Source: Candidatus Omnitrophota bacterium | GTDB lineage: Bacteria > Omnitrophota > Omnitrophia > Omnitrophales > Aquincolibacteriaceae | Assembly: GCA_022711115.1 (NCBI GenBank) | Contig: JAKLFP010000005.1 | Span: 72,572 to 136,571 of the forward strand | DNA length: 64,000 bases | Direction of reading: 5' to 3' | In this document: positions 1 through 55,911 of the stretch, piece after piece | Numbering within the stretch: the first letter of the stretch is position 1 | Layout: every line of letters starts with the position of its first letter | The notes under the pieces: generated by a model | Told to the model about the DNA's origin: nothing | The model's input: only the letters and a program-made list of their open reading frames with translations | Databases searched by the model: none | Program-made: the position numbers and the translations under genes

Positions 1-1451
1 TAGGCGCAGGGGATGAAAGGCTTGCGAGTGAAAATCTTGTTCATTTTCCGATGCTGATCCATGAGAAACCTAAAAAAGTCCTCCTGATTGGGACAGGATT
101 CAACGGTGTTTTGAGGGAAATCTTAAAATATCAACCCGACAGGGTTCAGGATGTCGAACTCGATCCTGCACAAGTGGAAATGGCAAAAAAATATATTTCT
201 TTGGAATTACGGCGTGTCTTGGATGATAAGCGTGTGGCAATCTGGACAGGGGATATTCGAGATTTCTTCAGGAAATCTTCAAATGCTTTTGATGTGGTGA
301 TCGTTAATGAACCCAACCCTTCAACGGTCCTCATCAATCGCCAATACACTACGGAATTCTTTCAGTGGATCAAGGAGCATCTTTCGCCAGGCGGGATTGT
401 CGCAGTCCGTTTAAAATTCGCTCCTGATTATATAACCTCCGAGCTTGAAAACCTGGCGGCATCAGTCTACAAGACGTTGAAGCGTTCATTCTCAAACGTT
501 CTTCTCTTGCCTGAAGACACGCTTTATGTCATGGCTTCCATGGTTCCGCTTATGCAGGATCCCACGGTTCTGGTAAACCGCCTTGAAAGCCGCGGGATTC
601 GAAATGATTTTGTGACGTCGGCTTATATTCGATACCGCTTGGGGAATGACCGTGTTGCTAAGGTGCGGGATCTTTTGGAGAAAAACAGCGTTGCAAAGAT
701 CAACGAGGATTCCACGCCGCGGGGTTATTTTTACGAATTTCTTTACTGGGTCAGTTCTTTTCATTTAACACTTGCGAGATTTTTTTTCTTCATCTTGAAA
801 GTACCTTTTGCTGTTGTTCTTGGTGTTCTGTTGTCGGGGATGTTAGGGGCAGGATTTTTTCTTAGAGCACGTCTGCCGGCAAGTACGGCAATGGCTTCGG
901 GCGGGTTCTCGCTGATGGCAACCGAGATCATTTTAATTTACGGTTTTCAGGTTTTTTTCGGCAATCTTTATTATCGGATCGCGTGGATCATCACGGCTTT
1001 CATGGCGGGTATGGGATTCGGGGTATGGATTGGGAATTGCAAACTTCTCAGAGACCCAAGCCGGATGTTAAGCCGCCTGCATGTTTTGACGGCAGGTTAT
1101 TTTCTGCTTCTTACGGTAGGATGGTGGTTTTTATCGCAGCATTCTGCCGCAGGACCGTTATTGGGAGAAGGTGCTTTTCTCTTGATGGCAGGGCTTATAG
1201 GCGGTCTTGTCGGCCTTGAATTTTCATGGGTGACCCAATATTTTGTCGATCATGCCGGCGCAAAAGACATGAGAACGGGAAAAGTCTATGCTGCGGATCT
1301 TTTCGGATCTTGCCTTGGGGCGTTCCTTACGGCAAGTTTTTTCATTCCTGTGTGGGGTGTTTACAGGACACTGATATTTCTTGCTTTTTTGAACGGCGGA
1401 ATCAGTCTACTTCTTCTCTTCGGAAAAAACCTCGGCCGTAAAAACCTGTAA
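1..1451 (+). CDS. Spermidine/spermine synthase-like aminopropyltransferase domain fused to a C-terminal polytopic membrane domain. The 5' end is partial: the ORF is open to base 3 with no in-frame stop.
   Basis: N-terminal region matches the spermidine synthase fold (…VLLIGTGFNGVLREI…; DVELDPAQVEMAKKY; VIVNEPNP). The C-terminal ~200 aa is strongly hydrophobic with multiple helices. Reading the frame back from ATG 51 gives no stop to the window start. Confidence 0.7.
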   Translation, partial: GAGDERLASENLVHFPMLIHEKPKKVLLIGTGFNGVLREILKYQPDRVQDVELDPAQVEMAKKYISLELRRVLDDKRVAIWTGDIRDFFRKSSNAFDVVIVNEPNPSTVLINRQYTTEFFQWIKEHLSPGGIVAVRLKFAPDYITSELENLAASVYKTLKRSFSNVLLLPEDTLYVMASMVPLMQDPTVLVNRLESRGIRNDFVTSAYIRYRLGNDRVAKVRDLLEKNSVAKINEDSTPRGYFYEFLYWVSSFHLTLARFFFFILKVPFAVVLGVLLSGMLGAGFFLRARLPASTAMASGGFSLMATEIILIYGFQVFFGNLYYRIAWIITAFMAGMGFGVWIGNCKLLRDPSRMLSRLHVLTAGYFLLLTVGWWFLSQHSAAGPLLGEGAFLLMAGLIGGLVGLEFSWVTQYFVDHAGAKDMRTGKVYAADLFGSCLGAFLTASFFIPVWGVYRTLIFLAFLNGGISLLLLFGKNLGRKNL

Positions 1452-2981
1452 CTTTACGGACGGATCTTTCCAGCAGTTTCTTGGCAATCCAGCCTTTTGC
1501 GAGCAAAGTTCGCTTAAAAATTCTTCCTTGCTCCAGCCTGTTTCCGTGGCCACTTGCGGCAAAAAAACGCCGTGGTGAAAACCCTTGGAGACCGTGACGC
1601 CATGTTTACCGATGACGATCTCGTCTGCGCTTTCAATATCCCGGAGCGGGCTCAGCACAGAGATCTCATACTCCAGTTTGCCGAGTTCGTCAGGGCTTAC
1701 CGGTCTGAATCGTGGGTCCTGGGTTGCGGCGGCAATGGCCATTTGTGAGATCACTTCATAAAGCGGTATGTCCGGCTCGAATCGACCGATACAACCGCGT
1801 AACTGGCCATATTCGTTCAGGGTTACGAACGCTCCGAGCTTTTGTTGTAAAGTTTGAGATGTCGGTGTTAGCGTCGGTACCTTTTGTGTTCGGACATAAC
1901 TTTCAACCGTGGACCGTGCCATGGCAAGAAGTTCTTCCCGCTCCGCATTATTTAATAAATTTTCCTCTGACAAAGGTTTGGGTTTGTCGGCCTCGCTTTC
2001 TCCGGATTTTGTAAAGGCAAAAGAGGAATAACCCACTACGCGGCTTTTATCTCCCATGAAAGAGTCTCCCGAATTTGCATAGTTGAGAAAATGAACGTTC
2101 GAAAATCCAAGGGTTTGAGAGACCAGCAATAAAGTTCGGACGCCGCTCACTCCGCATAAAAATGTTTCCGCGTTCGGGACTCTTTCACCGCCAAGCTTTT
2201 TCAGTGTCGCGTCGAGATTTTCGGCCTTCCCTGTCTGGATTGCTTGAATAGTTTGGTGATCAGCAGTCGAGGCTGCATCGTAAGGAGGATAATGAGACAT
2301 ATCCGTGCTGGCCACGATAAGCGTCTTGTCATCAATGTTCTTTTTTAACGCATCTGCCAGCAGCGTCGTAAGTGCCGAATCGTCATTGCCAAAAACGAGC
2401 GGCACAATTTTAAAGTTTTTTAACACACGCTGCAAAAAAGGAAGCTGGACTTCCAGGGTATGCTCGCGCATGTGAGCGCTGGGCCGTTCAATAATGACTT
2501 TGGGGCTTGCGGCCATGATCTTTTCTGCGAAAGCTTTGTCGATTTCGACGAGACCTAACGGTGTTTCAAAAGAACCTTCTTTGTAGATAGAAATCCCGCT
2601 AAACCAATCGGTGTGGCTGTTGGAAAGGATAATGACGGTTTTGATATCCTGGCCTTTCAATGCTTTATAAGCGTAGGCTGCGACCGGGCCTGAGTAGATA
2701 TAACCCGCATGCGGAACGATAATGCCTCGGATGTTTCCTTTGATCACAGGGGGGGTGGTCTGGCGTAGCATGGTATCCACGAAATTTTCAAGCTCCGGTT
2801 TTGAACCGGGATAAAATCCCCCGGCGACGGCAGCTTTTCTGATCGGTAAAGACGAGTCTGCGGCACTGCTAAGGGAACTATCCAGGGTTAGTAAAAGAAA
2901 AACTGACAACAAGGTAAGGATCGAAAATAATATTTTATTTCCAAATACCAGGAATTTTTTCTCCATCGGGGCATGCTCCAT
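1407..2981 (-). CDS. Fused AmmeMemoRadiSam system protein B (MEMO1 family) and protein A (AMMECR1 domain), with an N-terminal signal/anchor sequence
   Basis: Memo-like motif GIIVPHAGYIYSGPVAAYAYKAL in the N-terminal half. AMMECR1 core (…LRGCIGRFEPDIPLYEVISQMAIAAATQDPRFRPV…) in the C-terminal half. Hydrophobic N-terminus MEKKFLVFGNKILFSILTLLSVFLLLT. Start chosen at the internal Met, which overlaps the upstream rSAM gene by about 45 nt. The full ORF extends to 3095. Confidence 0.75.
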   Translation of the reverse strand: MEHAPMEKKFLVFGNKILFSILTLLSVFLLLTLDSSLSSAADSSLPIRKAAVAGGFYPGSKPELENFVDTMLRQTTPPVIKGNIRGIIVPHAGYIYSGPVAAYAYKALKGQDIKTVIILSNSHTDWFSGISIYKEGSFETPLGLVEIDKAFAEKIMAASPKVIIERPSAHMREHTLEVQLPFLQRVLKNFKIVPLVFGNDDSALTTLLADALKKNIDDKTLIVASTDMSHYPPYDAASTADHQTIQAIQTGKAENLDATLKKLGGERVPNAETFLCGVSGVRTLLLVSQTLGFSNVHFLNYANSGDSFMGDKSRVVGYSSFAFTKSGESEADKPKPLSEENLLNNAEREELLAMARSTVESYVRTQKVPTLTPTSQTLQQKLGAFVTLNEYGQLRGCIGRFEPDIPLYEVISQMAIAAATQDPRFRPVSPDELGKLEYEISVLSPLRDIESADEIVIGKHGVTVSKGFHHGVFLPQVATETGWSKEEFLSELCSQKAGLPRNCWKDPSVKLQVFTAEVFSEEKK

Positions 2982-4065
2982 TTTTAAGATTATTAACAAC
3001 GACAAAATGTCCTTGCCGGATGATAATTTTTTCTTTAGATTTCGTGCAGTAAGTTGCCTCGGCTTCCATATCTGCAATATTCCCGGTATAAACAAATTTC
3101 AAACCTTCCTCCATGGCAATCTTGCGTGCACGGACCATAGTCTCAGACGGCGTGGGTGGCAGGTTCTGTAATTTATACTGTGGAAAAAAACGGCTGAAAT
3201 GAAGAGGTACGTCGTCGCCGAGGTTTATTTTGATCCAGCGGGCCATGGTTCGGAACTCTTCATCGCTGTCATTTTCGCCGGGGATGATCAGGGTTACGAT
3301 CTCAAGCCAGACACCGCTTTGCTTGATTATCTTTAAAGTATTTAATACGGCATCCAAATGTCCGCCCGTAAGTTTTTTGTAAAATTTTTCTTGGAATGCT
3401 TTCAGGTCTATTTTATAAGCATCGATATAAGGCAGTAATTCTCTAAGCGGTTTCTCCTCAATATAACCGCTTGAGACCATCAATGTCTTCAGCCCTTTGG
3501 ATTTCGCGAGTTTGGCGATATCCAGTACATATTCGTAAGCAATCGACGGCTCATTGTAGGTGAAGGCGATGGACTCTGCGTCGCTAGCCTTGGCAGCGGA
3601 CACGACTTGCTCGGGGGTCATAGGCTGGGCTGAAATATCCCCTGGAAATGACTGGGAGATTTCCCAGTTTTGACAAAAGAGACAACGCATATTGCATCCG
3701 GTGGTGGCCACAGAAAAAGCCTTGCTGCCCGGGAGTACATGGAAAAACGGTTTTTTTTCAATCGGATCTACATGGGCGGTCGCGATCTTGCCATAGACCA
3801 TGGAATATAATTTTCCATCGATATTTTTCCGGGCCTTGCAGGCTCCCCAGCCTCCGGGTGCTATTGCGCAACGGTTGGGACAAAGAAAACACTGCACGGA
3901 TTTGTCGGACAAGGATTCATAATAGCGGGCTATCTGAAGAGATGAAACGATGGGGGATGCATCGGCTCGAAACGAGCGTTCACGTCGACAGATGAATAAA
4001 ATAAGAGCGCCTAGCATCGCTGCAAAAAACAGGAATGAAGCTGTTTTTTTTAAAAAAGACGCCAT
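2935..4065 (-). CDS. AmmeMemoRadiSam system radical SAM enzyme (PFL-activase-like) with an N-terminal hydrophobic extension
   Basis: CxxxCxxC radical-SAM motif (TTGCNMRCLFCQNWEIS). N-terminal ARYYESLSDKSVQCFLCPNRCAIAPGGWGAC is typical of the TIGR04337 family. It sits directly upstream of, and overlaps, the Memo/AMMECR1 gene. Residues 9-26 (ASFLFFAAMLGALILFIC) are hydrophobic. Confidence 0.8.
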   Translation of the reverse strand: MASFLKKTASFLFFAAMLGALILFICRRERSFRADASPIVSSLQIARYYESLSDKSVQCFLCPNRCAIAPGGWGACKARKNIDGKLYSMVYGKIATAHVDPIEKKPFFHVLPGSKAFSVATTGCNMRCLFCQNWEISQSFPGDISAQPMTPEQVVSAAKASDAESIAFTYNEPSIAYEYVLDIAKLAKSKGLKTLMVSSGYIEEKPLRELLPYIDAYKIDLKAFQEKFYKKLTGGHLDAVLNTLKIIKQSGVWLEIVTLIIPGENDSDEEFRTMARWIKINLGDDVPLHFSRFFPQYKLQNLPPTPSETMVRARKIAMEEGLKFVYTGNIADMEAEATYCTKSKEKIIIRQGHFVVVNNLKNGACPDGEKIPGIWK

Positions 4066-4731: not shown

Positions 4732-4907
4732 GGCTTCTATAGTAACAGAAAACGTTCCTTTTCTGGAAGAGCTCCTTTAGAGCGATTGTGGGAATATAAT
4801 GCGGAAAGGAAGCCATTGAATGCAGAAATCATCAACGATTACAATCACAAAAAGTTCTCAATACGGGTCCAAATGCCACCGATAAAGCTAATGAACGAAA
4901 GGTGGTT

Positions 4908-6221
4908 ATGAAAAATTTTTATCAGGGACATATTTTGAAAAATCACGCTGAGCTTTTTAAAACAGCCCATCGCTATCTTGTCGGAGGTGTGAATAGCCCG
5001 GTTAGATCCTTTAAGCCAATAGGGGGGGATCCGGTTTTTTTGAAACAGGCCAAAGGTTCCAAGATTTACGCCGAAGACGGACGTAAACTGACCGATTATT
5101 GTCTTTCCTGGGGGGCGATGATCCTAGGACATGCTTATCGAGAAGTTGTTGAGGCGTTGGAGCATGCGGTGAGACAAGGCACCAGTTATGGAATGCCCAC
5201 TTGCCTGGAAACCGAATTAGCAAAATTGATTGTTGATGCCATTCCTTCGATGGAACAAGTCCGGCTAACAAATTCCGGAACCGAGGCGGTAATGGGTGCG
5301 ATCCGTGTCGCCCGGGCTCATACCCAAAGGGACAAGGTCGTCAAATTCGAAGGTTGTTATCACGGCCATGCGGATCATCTTTTGGTCAAAACCGGATCGG
5401 GTGCGAACACTTTGGGAATTCCCGATAGCCTTGGAGTTCCTGCTGATTTTTCCAAGCATACCCTGGTTGTTTCTTACAATAATATCGAGCAAGTAAAAGA
5501 AACTTTTCAGCAGTATTACAATGAAATCGCGGCGGTTATTGTCGAACCTGTGGCAGGCAGTATGGGAGTCGTGATGCCCGAGCCAAATTTTCTTAAAGGA
5601 CTTAGAACGCTTTGTGATGAACACGGAGCTTTGCTGATTTTTGACGAAGTGACTACGGGTTTTAGGCTTATGTATGGCGGGGCTCAAAATTATCTCGGTA
5701 TTCTGCCAGATCTGACCTGTCTTGGGAAGATCATCGGTGGGGGCATGCCGATTGGAGCGTTCGGCGGACCACGTGAGATAATGAAAGTGCTGGCACCTTT
5801 GGGTGGCGCTTACCAGGAGGATACCTTGTCCGGGAATCCCATAGTGGTGACAGCAGGCATTGCGACTTTGAAATGTCTGAATCGTCTTCAGCCTTACTCG
5901 AAGTTGGCCTCTGCAACTCAAAAATTGTGCAAAGGAATCCAAGACGCGGCAGATTTTGAAGGGTTTAAGATCCGTATCAATGCGGCAGGATCCATGTTTT
6001 CCTTTTTCTTTACAGATCAAAAAGTAGTTCATTATCAGTCCGCAGCTTGCCAGGATACGGATTCTTTTCGGGAGTTTTATCAAGAACTTCTGCAGAGAAA
6101 TATTTATTTCTCGCCGTCACCTTTTGAAGCCAATTTCGTTTCTGTTGCCCATTCCGAAAAGGATCTTGAAAATACCCTTCAAGCTGTTCGGAATATTTTT
6201 AAAAAAATGAGAAAACAATAA
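4908..6221 (+). CDS. hemL: Glutamate-1-semialdehyde 2,1-aminomutase
   Basis: GGVNSPVRSFKPIGG, SWGAMILGHA, LIFDEVTTGFR and class-III aminotransferase architecture. A GTG at 4902 is an alternative start; the ATG at 4908 follows GAAAGG. Confidence 0.9.
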   Translation: MKNFYQGHILKNHAELFKTAHRYLVGGVNSPVRSFKPIGGDPVFLKQAKGSKIYAEDGRKLTDYCLSWGAMILGHAYREVVEALEHAVRQGTSYGMPTCLETELAKLIVDAIPSMEQVRLTNSGTEAVMGAIRVARAHTQRDKVVKFEGCYHGHADHLLVKTGSGANTLGIPDSLGVPADFSKHTLVVSYNNIEQVKETFQQYYNEIAAVIVEPVAGSMGVVMPEPNFLKGLRTLCDEHGALLIFDEVTTGFRLMYGGAQNYLGILPDLTCLGKIIGGGMPIGAFGGPREIMKVLAPLGGAYQEDTLSGNPIVVTAGIATLKCLNRLQPYSKLASATQKLCKGIQDAADFEGFKIRINAAGSMFSFFFTDQKVVHYQSAACQDTDSFREFYQELLQRNIYFSPSPFEANFVSVAHSEKDLENTLQAVRNIFKKMRKQ

Positions 6222-6246
6222 AGAACTTTTCGATGCGGAGTTTTGT

Positions 6247-7767
6247 ATGACAGATGCCTTTTTGAGTCAATCTCAAGAAGATTCCTCCGACCCTTTTTGC
6301 AGCGATCTGCCCTGCAGGCCCAATCCCCGGATGGGTAAAATTCTGGTGACGGGTGCTTCCGGGTATATAGGCGGCAGGTTGGTTCCTGAATTATTGTCAC
6401 GCGGGTATCAGGTAAGGGCCATGGTCCGGCGTGCCTCGCCGGAATATCAGGCGCGTTGGCCCCTTGCGGAGATCGTTGTTGCGGATGCCTTGGACGAAAA
6501 AACAGAGGCTCTTGGAAAAGCGCTTGCCGGGATCCATACAGCCTATTACTTGCTCCATTCTCTTTATTTGGGGCCGGAGCAATTCGAAGCCGCTGATATC
6601 AAAGCGGCCGAAAACTTCAGAAAAGTTGCTCAGGAACAGCAAATCCGACGGATAATTTATTTAGGAGGACTCGGTGATATCCAAAGTTCTCTTTCTTCGC
6701 ATTTGAGAAGTCGCATCGAAGTGGCCGAAGAATTGAAACGCAGTCAAATTTCCGTGACGATCCTTCGGGCCGGTATCATTATCGGTTCGGGAAGCGCTTC
6801 CTATGAAATTATTCAGCATCTCGTGCGGCGACTCAGCATAATTTTAGTGCCTTCTTGGGCTAAAAACAGATGCCAGCCGATTGCCATCCGGGATGTGATC
6901 AAATATCTCGTGGGGATGTTGGAAGTTCCTGAGACCGAAGGTAAAAATTTCGACATCGGTGGGAAAGATATTTTGACTTATGAAGCCATGCTGAAAAAGT
7001 TAAGCGGGATTTTAAATAAAAAAGTTTTTTTCATTCCCTTTCCGGTTTCCGGCACTCGCGGTTTTGCTTATCTCTCAAGCTTGTTCACGCCAGTGCCGGC
7101 TTCCATCACGCAATGTTTAATGGACAGTCTGAAAAATGAAGTGGTTTGCCAGGAAGATAATGTTAAACGGTATGTGCCGTTCGAACCCATGTCCTACAAA
7201 GAGGCGATTGTGAGAGCTTTGACGCGTGAAGACCAGGACCGGGTCTATACGAGATGGTCGGATGCTTATCCTCCTGCCCATGAACTTGCGCTCAAACTTC
7301 ATGAACTGAGTATCGGCCCAGCTTTCGGCGTTCGCTATTTTTTGGCCACGAAAAAGAATTCCCAATCGATTTTTAAATCCATCTGTAATGTCGGCGGCAA
7401 GGAGGGATGGTTCAACCATAATTGGTTATGGCGCACGCGCGGGATGATCGACCGTATCTTAGGCGGTGTGGGGTCGTCCCGGGGCCGGCGGAGCTATACC
7501 AAGCTAATCATTAACGACGTGATTGATTTTTGGCGCATCGAAGATCTTCAGGACGGGGAGCGGCTTCTCCTGCGATCCGAAATGAAATTACCCGGTAAGG
7601 CGTGGCTTGAATTCACGATTGAAGATAAGGGTGATGAAAGAAAATTAGCGTTGACCGCTTTCTATGATACCCAGAGTCTTTGGGGAAAAATTTACTGGTA
7701 TGCCTGCCTTCCTTTTCACCATATCATCTTTAAGAATCTTCTTTTTGATATCGAGAAAAGAAGCTGA
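6247..7767 (+). CDS. NAD(P)-binding NmrA/SDR-like domain fused to a DUF2867-type C-terminal domain
   Basis: Rossmann motif ILVTGASGYIGGRLVPELLSRGYQVRAMVR. Long C-terminal domain typical of DUF2867 fusions. GGAG lies 6 nt upstream of ATG 6247; an alternative start is 6331. Confidence 0.7.
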   Translation: MTDAFLSQSQEDSSDPFCSDLPCRPNPRMGKILVTGASGYIGGRLVPELLSRGYQVRAMVRRASPEYQARWPLAEIVVADALDEKTEALGKALAGIHTAYYLLHSLYLGPEQFEAADIKAAENFRKVAQEQQIRRIIYLGGLGDIQSSLSSHLRSRIEVAEELKRSQISVTILRAGIIIGSGSASYEIIQHLVRRLSIILVPSWAKNRCQPIAIRDVIKYLVGMLEVPETEGKNFDIGGKDILTYEAMLKKLSGILNKKVFFIPFPVSGTRGFAYLSSLFTPVPASITQCLMDSLKNEVVCQEDNVKRYVPFEPMSYKEAIVRALTREDQDRVYTRWSDAYPPAHELALKLHELSIGPAFGVRYFLATKKNSQSIFKSICNVGGKEGWFNHNWLWRTRGMIDRILGGVGSSRGRRSYTKLIINDVIDFWRIEDLQDGERLLLRSEMKLPGKAWLEFTIEDKGDERKLALTAFYDTQSLWGKIYWYACLPFHHIIFKNLLFDIEKRS

Positions 7768-7897
7768 GGCGTGATAATGCAAAGAAACTGTTTAGATTCT
7801 TGCGTGCCGTATAAACTCCACTTGTCTGCCAGCTTTTTGTATAATGCCCCAATGAGGCGCGTATGATTTTTAAAAGGCAAATAAAAAAAGAGCGACG

Positions 7898-9292
7898 ATG
7901 AATACGGATTTATTGTTGATCAAGCCTGATTTCCATGATATCGCGATCATGCCACCGATCGGGCTTGGATACTTATCCTCAATTCTTCGAAAAAAAGGTG
8001 TTTCCGTTGCCATTCATGATAATACCCTTCTTGGTTTTGATGACAAACGATTGGAAGCCCTGATTCGGGAACTTCGGCCCAGGATCATTGGTCTTTATGC
8101 TGCAACGCCGATGATCAAACGAGCTGAAGCGATTGTCCAACTCGCCAAACGTATTGATCCCGAGATCCTGGTGGTGCTTGGCGGGCCGCATCCCACCTGT
8201 ACTGTCGAAGAAACACTTGTCTATGCCGATGCTGTTGTGATGGGAGAAGGGGAAGAGACATTTCCCCCCATGGTGGAAAGATTTTTGGGAGGTTCGCGCG
8301 ATTTTTCGGGTATTGCTGGTTGTGCTTTCAAGGAGATGGGCGGGCAGGTGAAAATTAATCCCGCGAGGGATATCATCCGAGATCTGGACTTGCTTCCGTT
8401 TCCGGATTTTGAACATATGCCGATCTCAACCTATTTGAGTCAGGGAAATACTTTCGGTATCACTCAGAGGACAGCCCGGAGCTTGCCCATCATGGCTTCC
8501 AGGGGTTGTCCGTCCAACTGTACTTTCTGCCAGCGGTTTTTAGGAAAAAAATTCCGTATCCGTAGCGCTCAAAATGTGGTGGAGGAACTGACGCATTGGA
8601 AGGATAAGTACCAAGTGGATGAATTTAACTTTCTTGATGATAATTTCACACTTGTCAAAAAAAACGTTCTGGATGTTTGCGATCAGATCCACCGTAAAGG
8701 ACTCCATATCAAGTTCCGTTTTCCGAACGGTGTCCGGGAAGATTATCTGGATGAGGAGATCTTGGAGGCCCTTAAATCCGTGGGATGTTATCACCTTGAT
8801 TTCGGGATCGAAAGCGGCAGCCAGAAGGTTTTGGACCTCATGAAAAAGGGAAAAAAACTGGAGGATATCGTCGCGAAAGTTCATCTTTGCAAAAAGGCAG
8901 GCTTCAAAGTGTCCTCCTCATTCCTTTTCGGAACTCCGGGAGAAACCCTGGAGGATATGAAACAAACGATCCGTTTCGCGATATCCTTACCGTTAGACAG
9001 CGCTTGTTTCAGCCTCGTGATGCCGTTTCCTGGGACCGAAGTGCGTAAGGAAGCGGAAGCGAAAGGTTACTTGGCGCATAGTGATTATGAGGATTACACG
9101 ATGAGTCTTGAAAATATGAGACCCCCGTTGCAGACGCCCGATTGGAGCGGAAAGGATATTCTCTTTATGATTCGAAAGGCGAACCGGGATTTCTTTCTTC
9201 GCCCAAAACAGATCATGACGCTTTTACCAAGCATGCTCAATCCCGTGAATATAAAGCGATATGCCGTATCTTTTTTAAAAACGTTAAAATAA
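7898..9292 (+). CDS. B12-binding domain radical SAM protein (class B rSAM)
   Basis: N-terminal B12-binding-like region (LLLIKPDF…PPIGLGYLSSIL…). rSAM motif SRGCPSNCTFCQRF. Has the elongated C-terminal region seen in this family. Confidence 0.85.
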   Translation: MNTDLLLIKPDFHDIAIMPPIGLGYLSSILRKKGVSVAIHDNTLLGFDDKRLEALIRELRPRIIGLYAATPMIKRAEAIVQLAKRIDPEILVVLGGPHPTCTVEETLVYADAVVMGEGEETFPPMVERFLGGSRDFSGIAGCAFKEMGGQVKINPARDIIRDLDLLPFPDFEHMPISTYLSQGNTFGITQRTARSLPIMASRGCPSNCTFCQRFLGKKFRIRSAQNVVEELTHWKDKYQVDEFNFLDDNFTLVKKNVLDVCDQIHRKGLHIKFRFPNGVREDYLDEEILEALKSVGCYHLDFGIESGSQKVLDLMKKGKKLEDIVAKVHLCKKAGFKVSSSFLFGTPGETLEDMKQTIRFAISLPLDSACFSLVMPFPGTEVRKEAEAKGYLAHSDYEDYTMSLENMRPPLQTPDWSGKDILFMIRKANRDFFLRPKQIMTLLPSMLNPVNIKRYAVSFLKTLK

Positions 9293-9310
9293 TTTAGAAT
9301 CCTAAAAACA

Positions 9311-10156
9311 ATGTTTTTTAGAAAACCGAGGTTCGCGAAAATGTCGACGGAACGTATGCCTATTGTTTCGGTTGTGATGCCTTGCTATAACGCGGCAAGA
9401 TTTTTGAGAGAAGCCGTTGAAAGTATTTTGTCGCAAAGCTTTAGCGATTTAGAACTCATAGTTGTGAATGATGCTTCCACGGATGCCACCAAGGAAATTT
9501 TGATGGAATATCAGGCGAAAGATGGGCGCGTGGTATATGCGGAGCACGTGGCGAACCGCGGCGTGAGTGAGTCGCTGAATACAGGCCTGCGCCTTGTCCG
9601 CGGGGAATTCGTCGCCCGTATGGATGCGGATGATATTGCGGAACCGGAGCGTCTGGCGAAACAAGTCGCTTTACTTCGCAGAGATCCGGAAATTGTTGTG
9701 TGCGGTACTTTTCTTACCCTGATCGATGAAAACGGGAAAAAGATCGGAAAACGTGATTATGATGTGGATAGTGAGGTCATTAAAAAAAGATTTATGCGCC
9801 GGAGCCCTGTAGCCCATCCATCGGTTGTGATACGAAAGCAAATTCTGAATGCCCACCATTTAGAATACAGGCGCAAATATTTTTCCGCAGAAGATTATGA
9901 CCTTTGGCTACGGCTTATGCCTTATGGGAAGTTTGCGAATGTCGGAGAACCGCTTCTTCGGTACCGGCTTTCCAGCGATGCTCTCACGGTTCGTCGTTGC
10001 AAGACGGCGCTTTGGAGCACCATTCGCTTGAAATGGAGGTATTTGCGCTATGCGGATCTTGCGTCCTATGGTAATTTGATGTTGGAAATGATCTTGATGC
10101 TATTGCCGAAAAATGGAATCCTTTTTTTATACCGAAAATTCCATGGAGTCCAGTAA
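9311..10156 (+). CDS. Family 2 glycosyltransferase
   Basis: VSVVMPCYNAARFLREAVESILSQSF…ELIVVNDASTD and a DAD-type motif (RMDADDIAE). Alternative start at 9341. Confidence 0.85.
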   Translation: MFFRKPRFAKMSTERMPIVSVVMPCYNAARFLREAVESILSQSFSDLELIVVNDASTDATKEILMEYQAKDGRVVYAEHVANRGVSESLNTGLRLVRGEFVARMDADDIAEPERLAKQVALLRRDPEIVVCGTFLTLIDENGKKIGKRDYDVDSEVIKKRFMRRSPVAHPSVVIRKQILNAHHLEYRRKYFSAEDYDLWLRLMPYGKFANVGEPLLRYRLSSDALTVRRCKTALWSTIRLKWRYLRYADLASYGNLMLEMILMLLPKNGILFLYRKFHGVQ

Positions 10157-11596
10157 ATGAAAATCTGTTTCCTTGTCCCGCCGCCCCTAGATGGAAAACC
10201 AGCCGCGGAGCGTATTTTTGGCTGCAACTACGGGGTTTACAACCAGCCTAATATTTTTATGCTTTATGTGGCGACAGTCCTTCAAAAAGCCGGGCATGAA
10301 GTGCTGATCAAGGATTGTGTGATTGAGCATGCTTCTGTGAGTGCTTTTCAAAAATTCATCACTGAGAACTCTTCTGATATTTATTTTTTGGGAACGGTAT
10401 TTCTTTCCAAAACGACTGATTTAAAAGCCCGAGAAATGATCCGTCTCTTACAGCCGCATGCCAGATTTTGTTACTATTCCACAGAGCCGACAGCTCATCC
10501 GGAAGATTTTGCTGCGGAAGATACCGTGATCATCCGTGGAGAACCGGAAATGACCTCGCAAGAGGTTGTTGCCGCATTGGAAAAGAAAACGCTGCTGCAA
10601 GATATCCGCGGGATCGTATTTTCTTCCGGAGGGAAGTTGGTAGATACGGGATATCGTGAACCTCTCGAAAATTTGGACGTATTACCTTTTCCTGACCGCT
10701 CCCTTTTGCTAAAAAGAAATTACAATAATCCCAAATTATCGGTTTATCCTTTTACCACGATCCTTACTTCCCGGGGATGTCCGTATCGCTGCTATTACTG
10801 TGTCCCGAATTCGCTTTCTTTTTCCAGAGAGATCGATCTTAAAAAAAAGACTGGGGCTTTCCTGAAGCCTCGCTTTCGTTCCCGTTCGGTGGACAATGTG
10901 GTTCAGGAGGTCAGGATGTTGGCCCGCCAGGGTTATCGTTCTTTTTCCATTCTGGATGATCTGTTTGCTTTTGATAACCAGTGGACGATCGATTTTTGCC
11001 AGAAGATTCAAGATCTCAGGATGGAATGGTCCTGTCTTTCTCGTGCGGATCACATGACGGATCCCGCCATGGTTCAGGCGATGGGAAAGGCGGGTTGTAA
11101 ATTTGTGGCAATGGGGATCGAATCCTTCCACCAGGATATTTTGAAATTTGTCAGAAAGGATCTGGATCTCGGAACCGTACCAGTAGCGGTTCAAAATATG
11201 AAAAAAGCGGGTATTGAAGTTGTGATCAATGTGCTTTTTGCTTCCTGTGATTTAGAAACCGAAAAGACAATCCTTGAGACTTACCGCACTCTGAAACAAT
11301 TGGATCCGGATTATGTGCTTTTTTCCGCATGTACGCCGTTTCCCTATACGGAATTTAATCAAATCGCCAGGGAAAAAGGGTGGATGGTTGAGCCTGAATA
11401 CCGGCCTGTAGATCCGATGAAATCAGCCTTCATATCTTACTCGCATCTTTCCAAGGAGAGAATCGAAAAGCTATTGCGACGGGTTTATATCGGCTTTTAT
11501 TTCCGTCCAAGCTATCTCTGGAAGAAGCTTTGCAAGGTCAAAAGTCCGTTGGATTTTATCAATAAAATCAAAGCAGCTTTGAACATATTTCGCTAA
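10157..11596 (+). CDS. B12-binding domain radical SAM protein (class B rSAM)
   Basis: MKICFLVPP… B12-binding-like N-terminus. rSAM motif SRGCPYRCYYCVPN. The ATG directly abuts the stop of the GT2 gene (TAAATG). Confidence 0.85.
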   Translation: MKICFLVPPPLDGKPAAERIFGCNYGVYNQPNIFMLYVATVLQKAGHEVLIKDCVIEHASVSAFQKFITENSSDIYFLGTVFLSKTTDLKAREMIRLLQPHARFCYYSTEPTAHPEDFAAEDTVIIRGEPEMTSQEVVAALEKKTLLQDIRGIVFSSGGKLVDTGYREPLENLDVLPFPDRSLLLKRNYNNPKLSVYPFTTILTSRGCPYRCYYCVPNSLSFSREIDLKKKTGAFLKPRFRSRSVDNVVQEVRMLARQGYRSFSILDDLFAFDNQWTIDFCQKIQDLRMEWSCLSRADHMTDPAMVQAMGKAGCKFVAMGIESFHQDILKFVRKDLDLGTVPVAVQNMKKAGIEVVINVLFASCDLETEKTILETYRTLKQLDPDYVLFSACTPFPYTEFNQIAREKGWMVEPEYRPVDPMKSAFISYSHLSKERIEKLLRRVYIGFYFRPSYLWKKLCKVKSPLDFINKIKAALNIFR

Positions 11597-11612
11597 TGCG
11601 GTAAACCTTTTC

Positions 11613-12221
11613 ATGAAGCACGCTTCTTCGACCCAGGCAACCCGCTCTCAAGATTACACAGACTATCTTGCAAAGGATTCACAAATATGGTGGAAACGTC
11701 TGTTTCATGTTCAGGCACCTTATGCCTGGAATTTACGACGGCTTAAACCAGGTTTTACTTTAGAAATAGGCTGTGGGATTGGCCGCCAGTTGCTTTATCT
11801 TTACGGGAATGGAGTCGGTATTGACCACAACGCAGCGTCAGTTCAGGGCGCAAGAAAACAGGGGCTTCAAGCTTTTACTCCGGAACAATTTCAAGCTTCT
11901 TCTTTTAACAAACCTTGCAGTTTCGATTCTTTGCTCTTAGCTCATGTTGCAGAACATATGACAAAAGGCCAAGTGATCGATCTTTTGAGCCGGTACGTCG
12001 GCCTTTTAAGGTCTCACGGAAAATTAATCCTGATCACACCTCAGGAATTGGGTTTTCAGAAGGATCCCTCGCATGTGGAATTCATGGATTTGTTGAAAAT
12101 GCGGGAAATAGCGGAAACGCTTGGGTTTCAAATTGTTAAGCAATATTCTTTCCCATTTCCCAGAGTTTGCGGAAAGTTTTTTAGACATAATGAATTTGTC
12201 TCAGTCGGGATAAAAAAGTAG
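11613..12221 (+). CDS. Class I SAM-dependent methyltransferase
   Basis: Motif I LEIGCGIGRQL and Methyltransf_11/12-like spacing. Last gene of the +strand operon. Confidence 0.8.
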   Translation: MKHASSTQATRSQDYTDYLAKDSQIWWKRLFHVQAPYAWNLRRLKPGFTLEIGCGIGRQLLYLYGNGVGIDHNAASVQGARKQGLQAFTPEQFQASSFNKPCSFDSLLLAHVAEHMTKGQVIDLLSRYVGLLRSHGKLILITPQELGFQKDPSHVEFMDLLKMREIAETLGFQIVKQYSFPFPRVCGKFFRHNEFVSVGIKK

Positions 12222-18085: not shown

Positions 18086-19543
18086 ATGTTAATTTTGAGG
18101 AAAATCCTTTTTTATATTTTTGCTTCGGTTTATTTAGTTTTATGCCCCCTGATCATTCTCTATGCGCTTGGGTATATTTTTACGCCTAAGGTAGAAGAGG
18201 GATTTGCTAAAACCGGTTTGATTCATCTTGAAACCTTGCCCGAGGGGGCTTCCATTTCCATAGCAAATAAACACTCTGCCGAAAAAACGCCTGCGACTAT
18301 TCGGAACCTTCTGGCCGGGAAATATGAAATCAGGATTTCCTTGCGCGGATATCGTCCCTGGATCCAAAAGGTAGTCGTGGAGCCTGGGAAAGCGGTGGCT
18401 TTTGATAAGGTGCTGCTGATCCGGGAGAGACTTCAAAAAAAGACCTTGATCCAGGAATCATTTGCGAATTTGTTTCCTGTTTCGGGCACTCGTTTTTTAT
18501 TGCTCATGAAATCCAAAAAGATAAAAGATTTTTTTGTCTTTGATTGGAAGAGCGAAGCTTCTCGCCCTCTCTTGTCGGAAGGATCACCTTTGGAGGATGC
18601 AGAGCTTAGTCGGTTTTATATGTCGAAGCAAAGTCCTTTTGTTCTGCTTCAGGTCAAATGGAATAACGCGGTGAAATTTCTTGGCTGCCAGCTGGATAAA
18701 GAAAAACCGGAAATCAAGGATATCTCACGGCTTTTTTTAAAAGGAGAACCGTCGGAAATCCGGTGGGAGGGAGGGGCGCCAGATTACCTTTTTGCGGCCT
18801 ATGGCGATCACCTTTATCGATTCGATCTTGAAAAAATGATCGTTTTTCCGAATTTTTTGAAAAAAATCCAGGGGTTCGGACTTTATAAAGGCAAGGTCTA
18901 TGCGCTTCGGTCTTTTTCCATCGTGCGTTTGAACTTTAATGCCAAAACAAGCCAAGAGACGGTGGTTGAAAAAGGTTCTTTTCTGGAAAACCTTTTTCAC
19001 GAGTCGGGCCATTACAAAATCGATTTTTTATCAAGAAATACGATCTGTTTTTTAGGAAAGAATGGAGCATTGTTGGCTAATGTGCTTCCTTACCGTTTTA
19101 TCGAAGAGGGACTGAAGGGGTATCAGGAGGATGCCGCAGGGAAGAAAATCGTGTTTTGGCAGGATGAAAAACTGGGTATTCTTGATTTCAGCAGGTCCGA
19201 AAGGAGAAGGGAAATTTTTGAACCGGGACCCGAGATCGATTGGGCTTTAAATGATGGGACGATGATTGAACAGGCCTATTTTGTTTATGATGCCTCCCAC
19301 GTGCTATTTCGGGATCAGGATGAAGTGATGATGCTTGCTTTAAGGCGGGGAGACCGTTCTTTGCAAAAAATTGTAAAATTATTCAGAAATAGTTCTATGT
19401 TTTATTCTGATGACACCGGCCGTCTTTTCTATCTTGAACCTAACACGGGATATTTGACGTCAACCGAGATTCTCCCGGAGGGATTTAGTTTCTCCGGTGT
19501 TCTCAGCGAATTTGAAAAAGAAACCAAAGAGGTCTTGAAGTGA
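18086..19543 (+). CDS. PEGA domain-containing membrane-anchored protein
   Basis: N-terminal TM helix followed by a PEGA-like module (…PEGASISIANKHSAEKTPATIRNLLAGKYEIRISLRGYRPW…). The rest has no recognisable catalytic motif. Confidence 0.6.
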   Translation: MLILRKILFYIFASVYLVLCPLIILYALGYIFTPKVEEGFAKTGLIHLETLPEGASISIANKHSAEKTPATIRNLLAGKYEIRISLRGYRPWIQKVVVEPGKAVAFDKVLLIRERLQKKTLIQESFANLFPVSGTRFLLLMKSKKIKDFFVFDWKSEASRPLLSEGSPLEDAELSRFYMSKQSPFVLLQVKWNNAVKFLGCQLDKEKPEIKDISRLFLKGEPSEIRWEGGAPDYLFAAYGDHLYRFDLEKMIVFPNFLKKIQGFGLYKGKVYALRSFSIVRLNFNAKTSQETVVEKGSFLENLFHESGHYKIDFLSRNTICFLGKNGALLANVLPYRFIEEGLKGYQEDAAGKKIVFWQDEKLGILDFSRSERRREIFEPGPEIDWALNDGTMIEQAYFVYDASHVLFRDQDEVMMLALRRGDRSLQKIVKLFRNSSMFYSDDTGRLFYLEPNTGYLTSTEILPEGFSFSGVLSEFEKETKEVLK

Positions 19544-21180
19544 AGTTTGTTTATTCTCGTCGAGGACTGAAAGGTAAAGACATGTTCTTTCAACGTGTCT
19601 TTGAGGTTCTTCCTGGTCTAACGAGTTGGTTTCTCGTTTTAGGGATCATCGCGGTTTCTTTTTGGAAGCCGATCATTTCTTCAATTCTGGTGATTGCTTT
19701 TCTGTTGGGATGGCTCCTCCGGCTTTTTTATCTCACAATCATTTTGATGCTTTCCTATTGCAGGCTGTCCCTTGAAAAAAATACGGATTGGCTTGCGAGG
19801 ATCCGTGGTTTGGATCGTTTGGATGTCTATCGAAAAGAACTCAGTAGGCTTGGTGGGGGAAAAGATTGGGCAAACAAACTTTCACTTTGGGCTCACAAGA
19901 AAGACCTTGAACGGCTAAAAAAATCAGGCAATATGCCGCCACGTTCCGGGGATATTTACCATCTTGTTGTGATTCCAGTGATTAAGGAATCGCCGGAAGT
20001 GGTGAGGAGTAATATTGCGGGAATTGCCAGCAATACGGTTTTAGCGAAGCAAATTCTTATTACGGTGGCGCTTGAATCAAGGGCTCAAGAATCGATGAAG
20101 GAAGCCATCCGCCAAATTGCGGCCGAATGGCAGCAGCATTTCATGGATCTTCTGGTTGTGGAACATCCGGATGGTCTGCCGGGCGAAGCGCGGGTGAAGG
20201 GCGCCAATACAAGTTATGCGGCACGAATTGCGGCAGCATATTATGAAAAGAAACATATCCCTTTTAAAAATATCATTGTTTCTTGTTTTGATGCGGATAC
20301 CGTCGTAAGCCCGCAATATTTCAGCTGTCTGACGTACAGTTTTATGATTTCACCGGACCGCCAGCGGGCAAGTTTTCAGCCGATACCCGTTTATTACAAT
20401 AATATCTGGGAAGTGCCAGGATTCGCGCGAGTAGTTGAGATAGGGTCTTCTTTTTTTCAACTAGTCGAGACGACAGATCCTGAGAAACTCGTGACCTTTT
20501 CCAGCCACAGCATGAGCTTTCAGGCGCTTGTAGAGGTGGGGTATTGGCCGGTCGATATGATTTCGGATGATTCTGGGATTTTTTGGAAATCCTATCTCTA
20601 TTTTGACGGGGAATATCGAGTGATCCCGTTACCGACCACATTATCCATGGACGTTGTAGATGCGGGAGCATGGTGGCGAACGGTGGTGAGTTTGTATAAA
20701 CAGAAACGGCGCTGGGCTTGGGGGGTGGAGAATTTTCCTCTTGTGATGCGCGGATTTATGAAGAGTAAAAAAATATCACTTTATAATAAGTTGCGACTTG
20801 GTTTTAAATTATTTGAAGGGCATATCACCTGGGCGGCTTTGCCGTTCCTGCTGACGCTTGTCGGATGGCTGCCGTTGATTTCTTCGGGGAATGAATTTTC
20901 AAGCACCGTCCTTTATTACAGCTCGAGCAGGCTGACGCAAATCATTTTCAGCCTTTCCTCGCTGGCACTTTTGAGTACGGTGGTGTTAAGTATATGGCTT
21001 TTGCCTAAAAAGAAGAAAAAATTCTCTTTGCTTTGGAACCTAATTCATTTTCTGGAATGGCTTCTGGTGCCTGCGATCCTCGTTTTTTTAAGTGCCATGC
21101 CGGCGTTGGATGCACAGACACGGTTAATGTTCAATCGCAGGATGGAATTCTGGGTATCTGAAAAAAGGCGCCTTTTATGA
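19540..21180 (+). CDS. Processive family-2 glycosyltransferase (cellulose/chitin-synthase-like), integral membrane
   Basis: D,D,D,QxxRW signature: FDADTV …, and QKRRWAWG after the catalytic domain. Multiple TM helices at both ends. The GTG start overlaps the PEGA gene stop; an alternative ATG is at 19582. Confidence 0.75.
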   Translation: MKFVYSRRGLKGKDMFFQRVFEVLPGLTSWFLVLGIIAVSFWKPIISSILVIAFLLGWLLRLFYLTIILMLSYCRLSLEKNTDWLARIRGLDRLDVYRKELSRLGGGKDWANKLSLWAHKKDLERLKKSGNMPPRSGDIYHLVVIPVIKESPEVVRSNIAGIASNTVLAKQILITVALESRAQESMKEAIRQIAAEWQQHFMDLLVVEHPDGLPGEARVKGANTSYAARIAAAYYEKKHIPFKNIIVSCFDADTVVSPQYFSCLTYSFMISPDRQRASFQPIPVYYNNIWEVPGFARVVEIGSSFFQLVETTDPEKLVTFSSHSMSFQALVEVGYWPVDMISDDSGIFWKSYLYFDGEYRVIPLPTTLSMDVVDAGAWWRTVVSLYKQKRRWAWGVENFPLVMRGFMKSKKISLYNKLRLGFKLFEGHITWAALPFLLTLVGWLPLISSGNEFSSTVLYYSSSRLTQIIFSLSSLALLSTVVLSIWLLPKKKKKFSLLWNLIHFLEWLLVPAILVFLSAMPALDAQTRLMFNRRMEFWVSEKRRLL

Positions 21181-40605: not shown

Positions 40606-40624
40606 GAGGCCATTGTTCTTTGAA

Positions 40625-40880
40625 GAATTAAATAACAGGCGTATCAGGGAAGCGAGCCCCGCAAGTATTTACGGGGACTCCACGGTGCCGCCGCTGTCGA
40701 CAGGGACGAAAGCGAAAATGCCACTGCCTTGTGAAAGGTGGGAAGGTTCGCGAGTAGGTTTGTACTTGTCTAGTCAGAATACCAGCCTGTGATCTCAACA
40801 TTCAAATTCCAAGTCCTCCGAGCAGAGGTAAAGCCAGGTGAACCCTTTCTTGCCCATGCCGAGGCGGAAAGGGTTTTTTT
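40625..40880 (+). ncRNA. Cobalamin (AdoCbl) riboswitch with intrinsic-terminator expression platform
   Basis: B12-box GCCACTG at 40720-40726. Upstream it has …CAGGGAAGCGAGCCCCGCAAG…GGTGCCGCCGCTGTCGACAGGGACGAAAGCGAAAATGCCACTGCC, typical of Cbl aptamers. Terminator hairpin CCCTTTC…GAAAGGG+TTTTTTT at 40843-40880, immediately before the TonB-dependent receptor start. The operon context (btuB/F/C/D, cobO) matches. Confidence 0.8.
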
Positions 40881-43172: not shown

Positions 43173-43194
43173 AACCCAGGATGAGGACATTGTC

Positions 43195-43674: not shown

Positions 43675-43678
43675 TCTT

Positions 43679-46846: not shown

Positions 46847-46892
46847 AACCATTTCTAGTAGTCCGATCAAAGTTGGAGTATAATCCATCTCT

Positions 46893-48977: not shown

Positions 48978-49021
48978 AAAATTCAAAAAACGATCCTTCA
49001 AAACAAGAAAGCCAAAACATC

Positions 49022-51306: not shown

Positions 51307-51310
51307 AGCC

Positions 51311-55481: not shown

Positions 55482-55519
55482 TCTTATGAACCTAATCATT
55501 TAAAGGAAAGGGATTTTTC

Positions 55520-55732: not shown

Positions 55733-55757
55733 TTATTGCTCTGACGCCAGAACCTTT

Positions 55758-55803: not shown

Positions 55804-55911
55804 AATAGAAAAGACGGTCCAAGGGGTTTCATTAAGAAAAGAATTTTAAAACCGATACTATATTATAGTTTAAGCACTATATTTTGATAAATTCTTTTGA
55901 AAGAAAGAACT

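Follow-up and report, generated by a model that had tools for sequence, protein, structure and literature searches.

A radical SAM and glycosyltransferase cassette in a Candidatus Omnitrophota genome that may tailor a lipid-linked cell-surface glycan

Gene content and organisation of the locus

The subject of this work is a short gene cassette in a stretch of 64,000 nucleotides (nt) from a Candidatus Omnitrophota bacterium (GenBank assembly GCA_022711115.1, contig JAKLFP010000005.1, positions 72,572 to 136,571), to which we refer as the window and in which the first letter is position 1. The cassette lies on the plus strand and begins with the gene for rSAM-A (7898-9292), a class-B (cobalamin-type) radical S-adenosylmethionine (SAM) enzyme of 464 residues with matches to PF02310 and PF04055. 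Next comes a family 2 glycosyltransferase (GT2) of the GT-A fold, whose longest open reading frame (ORF) spans 9311-10156 (281 residues; PF00535, 127.6 bits), followed by a second radical SAM enzyme, rSAM-B (10157-11596, 479 residues), with a Rossmann-like N-terminal domain and a PF04055 match of 60.3 bits. The last gene (11613-12221) encodes a small class-I SAM-dependent methyltransferase (MT) of 202 residues that matches PF08241 with 28.9 bits against a Pfam gathering threshold (GA) of 21.2. Upstream of the cassette, on the same strand, lies a gene (6247-7767) for a 506-residue protein combining a short-chain dehydrogenase/reductase (SDR) domain of the NmrA type with DUF2867 (Pfam DUF2867, 93.8 bits; NAD_binding_10, 55.8 bits). 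All five proteins passed the gathering threshold of a Pfam family, and the positions of the ORFs and of the CxxxCxxC motifs, all on the plus strand, are those given by an earlier sequence-only reading of this DNA.

When the longest ORFs are taken, the gaps between the five genes amount to 130, 18, 0 and 16 nt, and the group is bounded by HemL upstream and by a convergent AcrB/OEP efflux pair downstream. The probable start of the GT2, however, is the ATG at 9341 (271 residues), which has a GAGG about 10 nt upstream; orthologous GT2s begin 5-8 residues ahead of the VSVVMP motif, and gene callers on identical contigs also chose 9341. The gap between rSAM-A and GT2 is therefore probably 48 nt and not the 18 nt of the sequence-only reading, whose values of 0 and 16 nt for the other two gaps hold. 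At the GT2/rSAM-B junction the stop codon of the first gene abuts the start codon of the second (TAAATG), and a Shine-Dalgarno-like GGAG lies 8 nt upstream, within the end of the GT2 gene. The genes share one strand, the gaps between them are short or absent, and their order is kept in relatives. From this layout and the conserved order, rSAM-A, GT2, rSAM-B and MT are judged to be a four-gene operon, as had been proposed.

Identical copies of rSAM-A were found on 10 metagenome contigs, and the closest named relatives of both radical SAM enzymes belong to metagenome-assembled genomes of Candidatus Omnitrophota, with up to 71% identity. The GC content and the third-codon-position GC content (GC3) of the cassette genes lie inside the range of the window, the MT having the lowest GC3 (0.40), and horizontal transfer of the MT or of the whole cassette was rejected on these grounds. 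By Kyte-Doolittle hydropathy, none of the four cassette proteins has a clear transmembrane helix. No regulatory RNA was detected upstream of rSAM-A with Rfam, the sole Rfam match of the window being a cobalamin riboswitch at 40.6 kb. A role in defence was also considered and rejected, as PADLOC gave weak generic matches alone (PDC-M51A, 57 and 24 bits; mad2, 24 bits).

rSAM-A resembles cobalamin-dependent methylases

The cluster motif of rSAM-A, CPSNCTFC, occupies residues 204-211 (nt 8507-8530). Its radical SAM domain (PF04055) scores 93.1 bits (GA 29.5) and its B12-binding domain (PF02310) 79.3 bits (GA 32.1), and its AlphaFold2 model (predicted local distance difference test, pLDDT, 88.8) has a fold like that of cobalamin-bound class-B structures, which together place the protein in class B. 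Among curated NCBIfam models, HpnJ (TIGR03471) ranked first for rSAM-A with a nearly full-length alignment and 200.1 bits (cutoff 577.6), ahead of ApyD (NF050148; 179 bits, cutoff 750), BchE (171.6 bits, cutoff 481.35), a P-methyltransferase family (169 bits, cutoff 575), the MgmA family (139 bits, cutoff 360), the TIGR03975 model for C-methyltransferases of ribosomally synthesised and post-translationally modified peptides (RiPPs; 131 bits, cutoff 282) and the AprD4 family (NF033070; 83.8 bits, cutoff 500). HpnJ was also the top model for rSAM-B, again nearly full length (161.4 bits), followed by BchE (131.5 bits) and the AprD4 family (95.9 bits). As no NCBIfam cutoff was reached by any of the five proteins, membership of the curated HpnJ, BchE, AprD4, PhpK, MgmA, HpnR, KedN5, TsrM and RiPP families was rejected, in keeping with the earlier statement that neither radical SAM enzyme fits a characterised subfamily.

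The top Foldseek matches of rSAM-A were MgmA (9ccb), TsrM, CysS, OxsB and TokK, the best being MgmA and TsrM, both of them cobalamin-bound methylases; the MgmA structure, 9CCB, was identified through PMC11796369 and PMC12931638. Lower-axial and stacking residues that matter for cobalamin use have been named (PMC12931638). At the positions that are lower-axial in TsrM and TokK, rSAM-A has the small or hydrophobic residues A69, T70 and P71, a weak agreement that is compatible with a methylase. TokK W215 falls in an insertion, and rSAM-B gave no usable alignment for such a diagnosis. With the cobalamin-dependent class-B methylases (MgmA/QCMT, TsrM, TokK and CysS) rSAM-A thus shares the B12-binding and radical SAM domains and its best structural matches, although it scores below every cutoff of the curated class-B methylase families and its substrate is probably a lipid-linked glycan and not a protein, a peptide or an antibiotic. 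By analogy with these enzymes, a B12-dependent C-methylase is the narrowly favoured assignment for rSAM-A. On general background and on the enzyme list in PMC12931638, it may also be comparable to the sugar C-methylases GenK, GenD1 and MoeK5.

The ortholog subfamily of rSAM-A was found at 10 loci, four of which also have rSAM-B; it partners rSAM-B in the Omnitrophota lineage and at locus L007 only, and one ortholog, from Altiarchaeota, is solitary. Around the orthologs there are genes for GT4 and GT2 glycosyltransferases, DUF2304 and PMT_2 proteins, a carbamoyltransferase, AsnB, Wzy_C and a WecA-type transferase.

rSAM-B belongs to a delimited family with a hallmark loop

In rSAM-B the cluster motif reads CPYRCYYC (residues 208-215, nt 10778-10801). 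The PF02310 score of this protein, 24.3 bits, is below the GA of 32.1, so that by this measure it falls outside class B, though the Rossmann-like fold is present and about half of its orthologs have a precomputed PF02310 match. The best sequence match in the Protein Data Bank (PDB) was AprD4 from the apramycin pathway (PDB 6FD2; E 1e-33 with the family profile, 23% identity), which was also the best fold match over the full length (TM-scores 0.75 and 0.79); the AlphaFold2 model used had a pLDDT of 91.8, with a single low-confidence part, the loop described below. AprD4 is a sugar 1,2-diol dehydratase that does not bind cobalamin, yet it falls inside the similarity network of the B12-dependent radical SAM enzymes (PMC12931638), and it requires an NADPH reductase partner, AprD3 (PMC5461906). 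Because this nearest structure does not use cobalamin, rSAM-B need not depend on B12. The sequence-only reading had taken both enzymes to be cobalamin-dependent; the PF02310 scores bear this out for rSAM-A but not for rSAM-B.

The two proteins have the same architecture, a Rossmann-like N-terminal domain followed by the radical SAM barrel, and the substrate of AprD4 is a sugar ring. rSAM-B differs from AprD4 in lacking a conserved reductase partner, in the surface-glycan instead of aminoglycoside setting of its gene cluster, and in an insertion that contains ER[IV]FGCNYG. In the window protein this insertion reads PPPLDG..AERIFGCNYG..QPNIF (residues 8-34, nt 10178-10258). Across the family it is a near-invariant element of 20-25 residues, PPPLDG-x-P-AAER[IV]FGCNYG[IV]Y-x-x-PN, inserted after β1 and before α1 in the Rossmann-like domain; at this place a short loop is all that ordinary class-B enzymes have, rSAM-A and AprD4 among them. 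The element holds an invariant Cys and might cover the substrate as a lid, bind a cofactor or donate a hydrogen atom.

An exhaustive search of 1.84 billion representative proteins with an rSAM-B profile returned 10,486 proteins at E<=1e-30, among which about 27 clusters (50% identity) reach roughly 390 bits or more, align from residue 1 and carry the hallmark. The weaker matches mostly begin near residue 31-35 because the hallmark insertion is specific to the family. Full-length orthologs with 43-53% identity occur in Omnitrophota, Nitrospirota, Riflebacteria, Deltaproteobacteria, WOR-3 and Aenigmarchaeota and also in Planctomycetota, where Jettenia and Brocadia, both anammox genera, are among the carriers. 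By these sequence measures rSAM-B belongs to a compact, delimited and unnamed radical SAM family with a hallmark loop of its own.

The closest characterised relatives of rSAM-B, HpnJ by hidden Markov model (HMM) and AprD4 by sequence and fold, edit sugar rings. By analogy, a sugar is probably its substrate, and the chances that it is a sugar-ring editor that does not methylate seem to us evenly balanced. It is from the resemblance to MgmA and TsrM on one side and to AprD4 and HpnJ on the other that rSAM-A is read as a C-methylase and rSAM-B as a sugar-ring editor.

One homolog of rSAM-B (P0259, 842 residues) is split by an intein that contains a LAGLIDADG homing-endonuclease domain and sits right after the third Cys of the CX3CX2C motif (…SRNCFGRCIYC|CHPD…AVSN|CIPCS…).

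The glycosyltransferase resembles polysaccharide-elongating enzymes

The GT2 of the window has the features expected of a GT-A enzyme, a PF00535 score far above the GA of 23.3 and a DXD motif (DADD, residues 105-108, nt 9623-9634), together with an NDAS motif at nt 9467-9478. The NCBIfam models EpsE (NF053739) and TuaG (NF047683) gave 129.5 and 107.3 bits, both short of their cutoffs (450 and 400), whereas HpnB gave 33.7 bits. Its best homologs of solved structure are the GT2 domain of the chondroitin polymerase K4CP (E 5e-31), heparosan synthase, PglI and SpsA. To judge from these matches, the protein is closest to GT-A enzymes that elongate polysaccharides.

The GT2/rSAM-B pair is the constant core of the cassette

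Close relatives delimit the unit. In a locus with 83% identity (L035) the genes for rSAM-A, GT2 and rSAM-B directly follow divergent DsbD_2/AmmeMemoRadiSam genes and end at a convergent gene, with HemL, SDR and MT all missing; in another with 72% identity (L036) the same three genes lie between unrelated genes, again without the MT. Since the block is kept in both with wholly different flanks, the conserved unit of this lineage is rSAM-A, GT2 and rSAM-B. A relative with 70% identity (L039) has the order rSAM-B and then rSAM-A.

A wider comparison drew on 63 loci whose rSAM-B ortholog is nearly full length; at 95% identity, 54 of these are non-redundant. Neighbours were called on the same strand, and since each call took the longest ORF, some of the overlap lengths may be overestimates. 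A glycosyltransferase of some kind precedes rSAM-B in 31 of the 41 loci with a same-strand upstream neighbour; this neighbour is a GT2 in 26 loci, a GT4-type enzyme in four and a WecA-type enzyme in one, while a class-I MT occupies the slot in three and a B12-type radical SAM enzyme in two. It lies no more than 10 nt from rSAM-B in 33 of the 41 loci and overlaps it by exactly 4 nt in 10. The upstream GT2s match the window GT2 over its full length with 31-47% identity, and this full-length homology implies that GT2 and rSAM-B have been inherited as a pair. Downstream of rSAM-B (42 loci) the neighbours are more mixed: GT2 in 11, class-I MT in seven, GT4-type in six, B12-type radical SAM in four, PMT_2 in three and WecA-type in one.

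Clustering of 130 class-B-like radical SAM ORFs at 38% identity gathered rSAM-B into a single family across 69 loci. Its commonest partner is a class-B subfamily other than that of rSAM-A, with 15 members of which 14 adjoin rSAM-B. Among the 22 loci with 3 kb or more on each side, 12 have at least one further class-B radical SAM enzyme, and these partners come from varying subfamilies. Taken together, clustering and adjacency indicate that the constant core is GT2 plus rSAM-B and that the B12-type partner is interchangeable.

The remaining two genes are less constant. The MT has the motif I of class-I enzymes (LEIGCGIG, residues 50-57, nt 11760-11783), but neither the 83% nor the 72% relative has it; among the seven class-I MTs found directly downstream of rSAM-B elsewhere, four are 23-26% identical to that of the window (E 1e-5 to 7e-9). 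The MT had been counted in the signature gene set, a place that it keeps only as an accessory: from its distribution it is judged to be an accessory operon member in this species. The SDR-DUF2867 protein, which carries a GASGYIG motif (nt 6352-6372) and had been named together with the gene set, drops out, because it has no homolog in the 83% and 72% relatives or in 117 other fetched loci and is separated from rSAM-A by 130 nt. As relatives of the module lack it, we also considered it an unlikely AprD3-like partner of rSAM-B; an SDR gene lies upstream of the module in this window only. HemL and the SDR-DUF2867 gene fill positions 4902-7767 between DsbD_2 and rSAM-A, two genes that stand about 22 nt apart in the 83% relative (L035:5008-5759), which indicates, on this comparison, that close relatives differ here by some 3 kb that were locally inserted or deleted.

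Relatives of the module lie in surface-polysaccharide clusters

In other phyla the module is set among genes for the assembly of surface glycans. The neighbourhood at L120 contains two Wzy_C proteins, GT4s, GT2s, a TylF methyltransferase, epimerases, Bac_transf, Polysacc_synt_2 and a GT2 paired with a DUF2304 protein. At L119 there are YfhO, three further B12-type radical SAM enzymes, Acyl_transf_3, methyltransferases and two GT2+DUF2304 pairs, and a locus from Riflebacteria has YfhO, an AglB-like protein and pilus genes. A census within 4.5 kb on either side of rSAM-B in 19 long loci counted, among 120 further genes, 18 GT2s, 14 B12-type radical SAM enzymes, about 10 class-I MTs, eight GT4-type enzymes and three DegT aminotransferases. 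Up to four B12-type radical SAM genes occur per glycan cluster in the relatives. Clusters for O-antigen, exopolysaccharide or capsule of the Wzy-dependent kind are conventionally tailored by O-methyl-, O-acetyl- and carbamoyltransferases; those of the relatives have the same company (Wzy_C, Bac_transf, Polysacc_synt_2, GT2/GT4, Acyl_transf_3, TylF and carbamoyltransferase) and add several B12-type radical SAM enzymes to it. No description of B12-type radical SAM enzymes in polysaccharide, O-antigen or exopolysaccharide clusters was found in the searchable full-text literature.

Gene fusions point in the same direction. Protein P0253 (L121:5991-8018, 675 residues, an intact ORF) joins an rSAM-B family enzyme to a C-terminal phosphoglycosyl transferase of the Bac_transf family (PF02397), with a transmembrane helix at the junction. 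It has the hallmark loop, is 48-52% identical to other family members and is preceded by a carbamoyltransferase gene that overlaps it by 4 nt. As one observation, this predicted fusion ties the rSAM-B family to undecaprenyl-phosphate-linked assembly. Two proteins of about 700 residues (P0302 and P0325) are partner-type B12 radical SAM enzymes fused to a C-terminal class-I MT domain; that of P0302 shares 31% identity with residues 102-202 of the window MT. Three others of about 1000 residues (P0270, P0277 and P0282) are tandem double B12-type radical SAM enzymes, as checked with Pfam for P0270 and as read from length and two matched stretches for the other two. The sequences of these fusions suggest multi-step methylation, both radical and polar, of one substrate.

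A GT2 of 235-246 residues followed by a small DUF2304 membrane protein recurs beside the radical SAM module (L005, L007, L038, L119 and L120), often together with a PMT_2 or YfhO enzyme of the GT-C type or a polysaccharide deacetylase. This arrangement resembles the Arn- or Gtr-like periplasmic decoration of glycans through a polyprenyl-phosphate sugar.

A possible role in glycan tailoring

Sugars are known to be tailored by radical SAM and B12-dependent enzymes in antibiotics (gentamicin, apramycin and moenomycin) and in two lipid head groups (hopanoid cyclitol ether and calditol). To our knowledge, such tailoring has not been known from ordinary cell-surface polysaccharides. The gene content and neighbourhoods described above lead us to propose, with a probability of about 0.6, that the cassette tailors a cell-surface glycan linked to polyprenyl phosphate, such as an O-antigen, an exopolysaccharide, a capsule or the glycan of a glycoprotein. 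The sequence-only reading had left open a glycosylated small molecule, a glycolipid or a polysaccharide, and the neighbourhood comparison narrows this to a polysaccharide or another lipid-linked glycan; that the acceptor is a lipid-linked glycan seems to us a reasonable expectation.

Our confidence in the specific reaction is lower, and the order of its steps is inferred. At the cytoplasmic face of the membrane, the GT2, an inverting GT-A enzyme with a DXD motif, would take a sugar from its nucleotide-bound form and attach it to a glycan linked to polyprenyl diphosphate. Translationally coupled to the GT2, rSAM-B would cleave SAM at the [4Fe-4S] cluster bound by its CX3CX2C motif, and the resulting 5'-deoxyadenosyl radical would abstract a hydrogen from the added sugar or from its nucleotide-sugar precursor, the outcome being a dehydration or deoxygenation, a ring rearrangement or an epimerisation. 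rSAM-A would then C-methylate an unactivated carbon, and in this species the class-I MT would add an O- or N-methyl group. Initiation, flipping or export, and polymerisation would be encoded elsewhere in the genome. A tentative and rather doubtful extension is that GT2 and rSAM-B represent a new radical-enzyme family that edits sugars already attached to an undecaprenyl-diphosphate-linked glycan and, with its B12-type partners, yields C-methylated, keto-deoxy or carbocyclic sugars of kinds so far unrecorded in the envelopes of bacteria.

Several observations weigh against the proposal of glycan tailoring. No genes for an initiating transferase, a flippase, a polymerase or nucleotide-sugar synthesis lie near the cassette in the 64-kb window, so that in this lineage the link to a polymer rests on relatives. 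As such initiating transferase, flippase and Wzy genes do surround the modules of other phyla, the cassette can be seen as a detached tailoring module in this lineage. Orthologs of rSAM-A also occur without rSAM-B, once beside an archaeal ribosomal operon, and no second fusion of rSAM-B with Bac_transf was found among the 120 best homologs, P0253 being known from a single contig. No member of either radical SAM family has been characterised, and the chemistry is accordingly deduced from distant relatives with at most 23% identity to solved structures. No reductase is consistently adjacent to the module, though deoxygenation of the AprD4 type needs one (PMC5461906). As for the operon itself, scans of the locus for promoters and terminators gave counts equal to the shuffled expectation and are uninformative either way.

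One of the closest known arrangements is that of HpnI, HpnK and HpnJ, which make the bacteriohopanetetrol cyclitol ether; there a GT2 stands next to a class-B-like radical SAM enzyme, HpnJ, that acts on a sugar once it has been joined to a lipid-anchored substrate. Both HpnJ and calditol synthase act by radical SAM contraction of a lipid-linked hexose after a glycosyltransferase step (PMC13459092). The cassette might then remodel a glycolipid head group in the manner of HpnI/J/K or Cds, the GT2 glycosylating a membrane lipid and rSAM-B, rSAM-A or both contracting the hexose to a carbocycle. The rank of HpnJ as top model for both radical SAM enzymes would agree with this, as would the stand-alone Omnitrophota cassette, whose one glycosyltransferase suits a single-sugar decoration. 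The HpnJ scores, however, are about one third of the cutoff, and the GT2 resembles EpsE, TuaG, PglI and K4CP, not HpnI or HpnB. Neither shc nor hpn genes (hpnH, hpnG, hpnI, hpnK) nor an HpnK-type deacetylase occur in the window, and the fetched neighbourhoods contain no hopanoid genes; in other phyla the module lies inside clusters for Wzy-dependent polysaccharides. We consider a glycolipid head group improbable. A soluble glycosylated natural product, akin to an aminoglycoside or to moenomycin, in which rSAM-B would be a diol dehydratase of the AprD4 type and the SDR protein its AprD3-type reductase, is less probable still. No solved structure comes closer to rSAM-B than AprD4, whether in sequence or in fold, and a candidate for the NADPH reductase lies 130 nt upstream, but rSAM-B reaches less than a fifth of the AprD4 family cutoff (96 against 500 bits), neither the closest relatives nor any of the other loci have the SDR gene, no genes for a cyclitol or aminosugar scaffold, for resistance or for an exporter are linked to the cassette, and the conserved neighbours are surface-glycan genes.

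The fit of ApyD as second-best model of rSAM-A, the score of TIGR03975 and the TPR proteins, AglB-like protein and pilins near some orthologs would suit a RiPP or a protein as the target of B12-dependent C-methylation and GT2 glycosylation, and the heavily methylated S-layer O-glycan of Kuenenia is a protein glycan in a related anaerobe (PMC5088730). Nevertheless, the scores miss all RiPP model cutoffs, the vicinity has neither a leader peptidase nor a RiPP recognition element, and there is no conserved precursor ORF, the lone small ORF in the upstream gap (31 residues, 7771-7866) having no room in the 83% relative. Were the target a protein glycan assembled on a lipid carrier, the explanation would merge with the proposed tailoring of a lipid-linked glycan; as a separate explanation we find it very improbable. 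That four unrelated genes merely came to lie side by side is the least credible explanation of all: the promoter and terminator scans do not exceed the shuffled background, and MT and SDR are not conserved neighbours, but the gaps are of 0 to 48 nt, the order rSAM-A, GT2, rSAM-B is kept in three species-level lineages with different flanks, a GT2 fills most of the upstream slots across phyla and fusions join the component families.

What is new here is the delimited radical SAM family, its tight coupling to a GT2 and the presence of several B12-type radical SAM enzymes inside ordinary surface-polysaccharide clusters, the superfamilies themselves being well known. If the tailoring of lipid-linked glycans is confirmed, the envelopes of largely uncultivated anaerobes bear sugars modified at unactivated carbons, and this would have a bearing on the recognition of hosts by phages, on the cobalamin demand of these organisms and on enzyme discovery; the rSAM-B family spans glycan clusters of Omnitrophota, Nitrospirota, anammox and other Planctomycetota, Riflebacteria, WOR-3 and some DPANN archaea. 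On the same condition, assignments of O-methyl groups from mass alone in glycan structures might also be wrong. The S-layer O-glycan of Kuenenia is heavily methylated, with a methylated reducing-end HexNAc and an unidentified 174-Da residue, and its methyl groups were assigned from mass alone (PMC5088730). Radical editing of sugars could explain such over-methylated or unidentified residues; rSAM-B orthologs are present in Jettenia and Brocadia, genera related to Kuenenia, and the link to Kuenenia itself is a lead only. The three-gene cassette of Omnitrophota represents the minimal form and would be convenient for heterologous reconstitution.

Other features of the window

A cobalamin riboswitch (RF00174, 53.7 bits, 40620-40804) heads a same-strand run on the plus strand (40620-52654) that consists of a TonB-dependent receptor, TonB, a BtuF-like protein, FecCD, an ABC ATPase, the CobA/BtuR adenosyltransferase and then a second pair of radical SAM enzymes, followed by phosphatidylserine decarboxylase, PssA (TIGR00473, 127 bits, cutoff 107) and LysE. 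Because the riboswitch precedes genes for a TonB receptor, TonB, BtuF-, BtuC- and BtuD-like proteins and CobA, this genome can supply B12. The first member of the second pair (694 residues) has no PF02310 match and the other (546 residues) combines B12-binding, radical SAM and DUF4070 domains; neither reaches an NCBIfam cutoff. The whole run has the look of a single B12-sensing unit, in which B12 import is combined with two radical SAM enzymes and with the synthesis of phosphatidylserine and phosphatidylethanolamine head groups, and the second pair may modify membrane lipids.

The sequence-only reading had counted this pair together with the two enzymes of the cassette as four class-B radical SAM enzymes in the window. 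The pair proves to belong to a separate unit, between the riboswitch-led B12-uptake genes and those for phospholipid head groups, and of the four enzymes only rSAM-A and the 546-residue protein pass the PF02310 threshold. Compared with one another, as had been suggested, the four are old paralogs with 19-28% identity, and a recent duplication was rejected.

A fifth radical SAM gene belongs to an AmmeMemoRadiSam system on the minus strand (1407-4065), with a Memo+AMMECR1 fusion and the activating radical SAM enzyme; the same system adjoins the cassette in L035. About 6 kb from the cassette, on the plus strand (18086-21180), the stop codon of a gene for a PEGA-domain protein overlaps the start codon of the next gene, which encodes a 546-residue GT2 of the Glyco_trans_2_3 type that is weakly PgaC-like, and the two may be a processive exopolysaccharide synthase pair. 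A block for glycogen or alpha-glucan metabolism (53904-59968, plus strand) encodes a GH57 branching enzyme, an alpha-amylase-family protein and glycogen phosphorylase. The window also contains a DisA-type diadenylate cyclase (28668-29456) and GlpK/GlpD (29505-32491).

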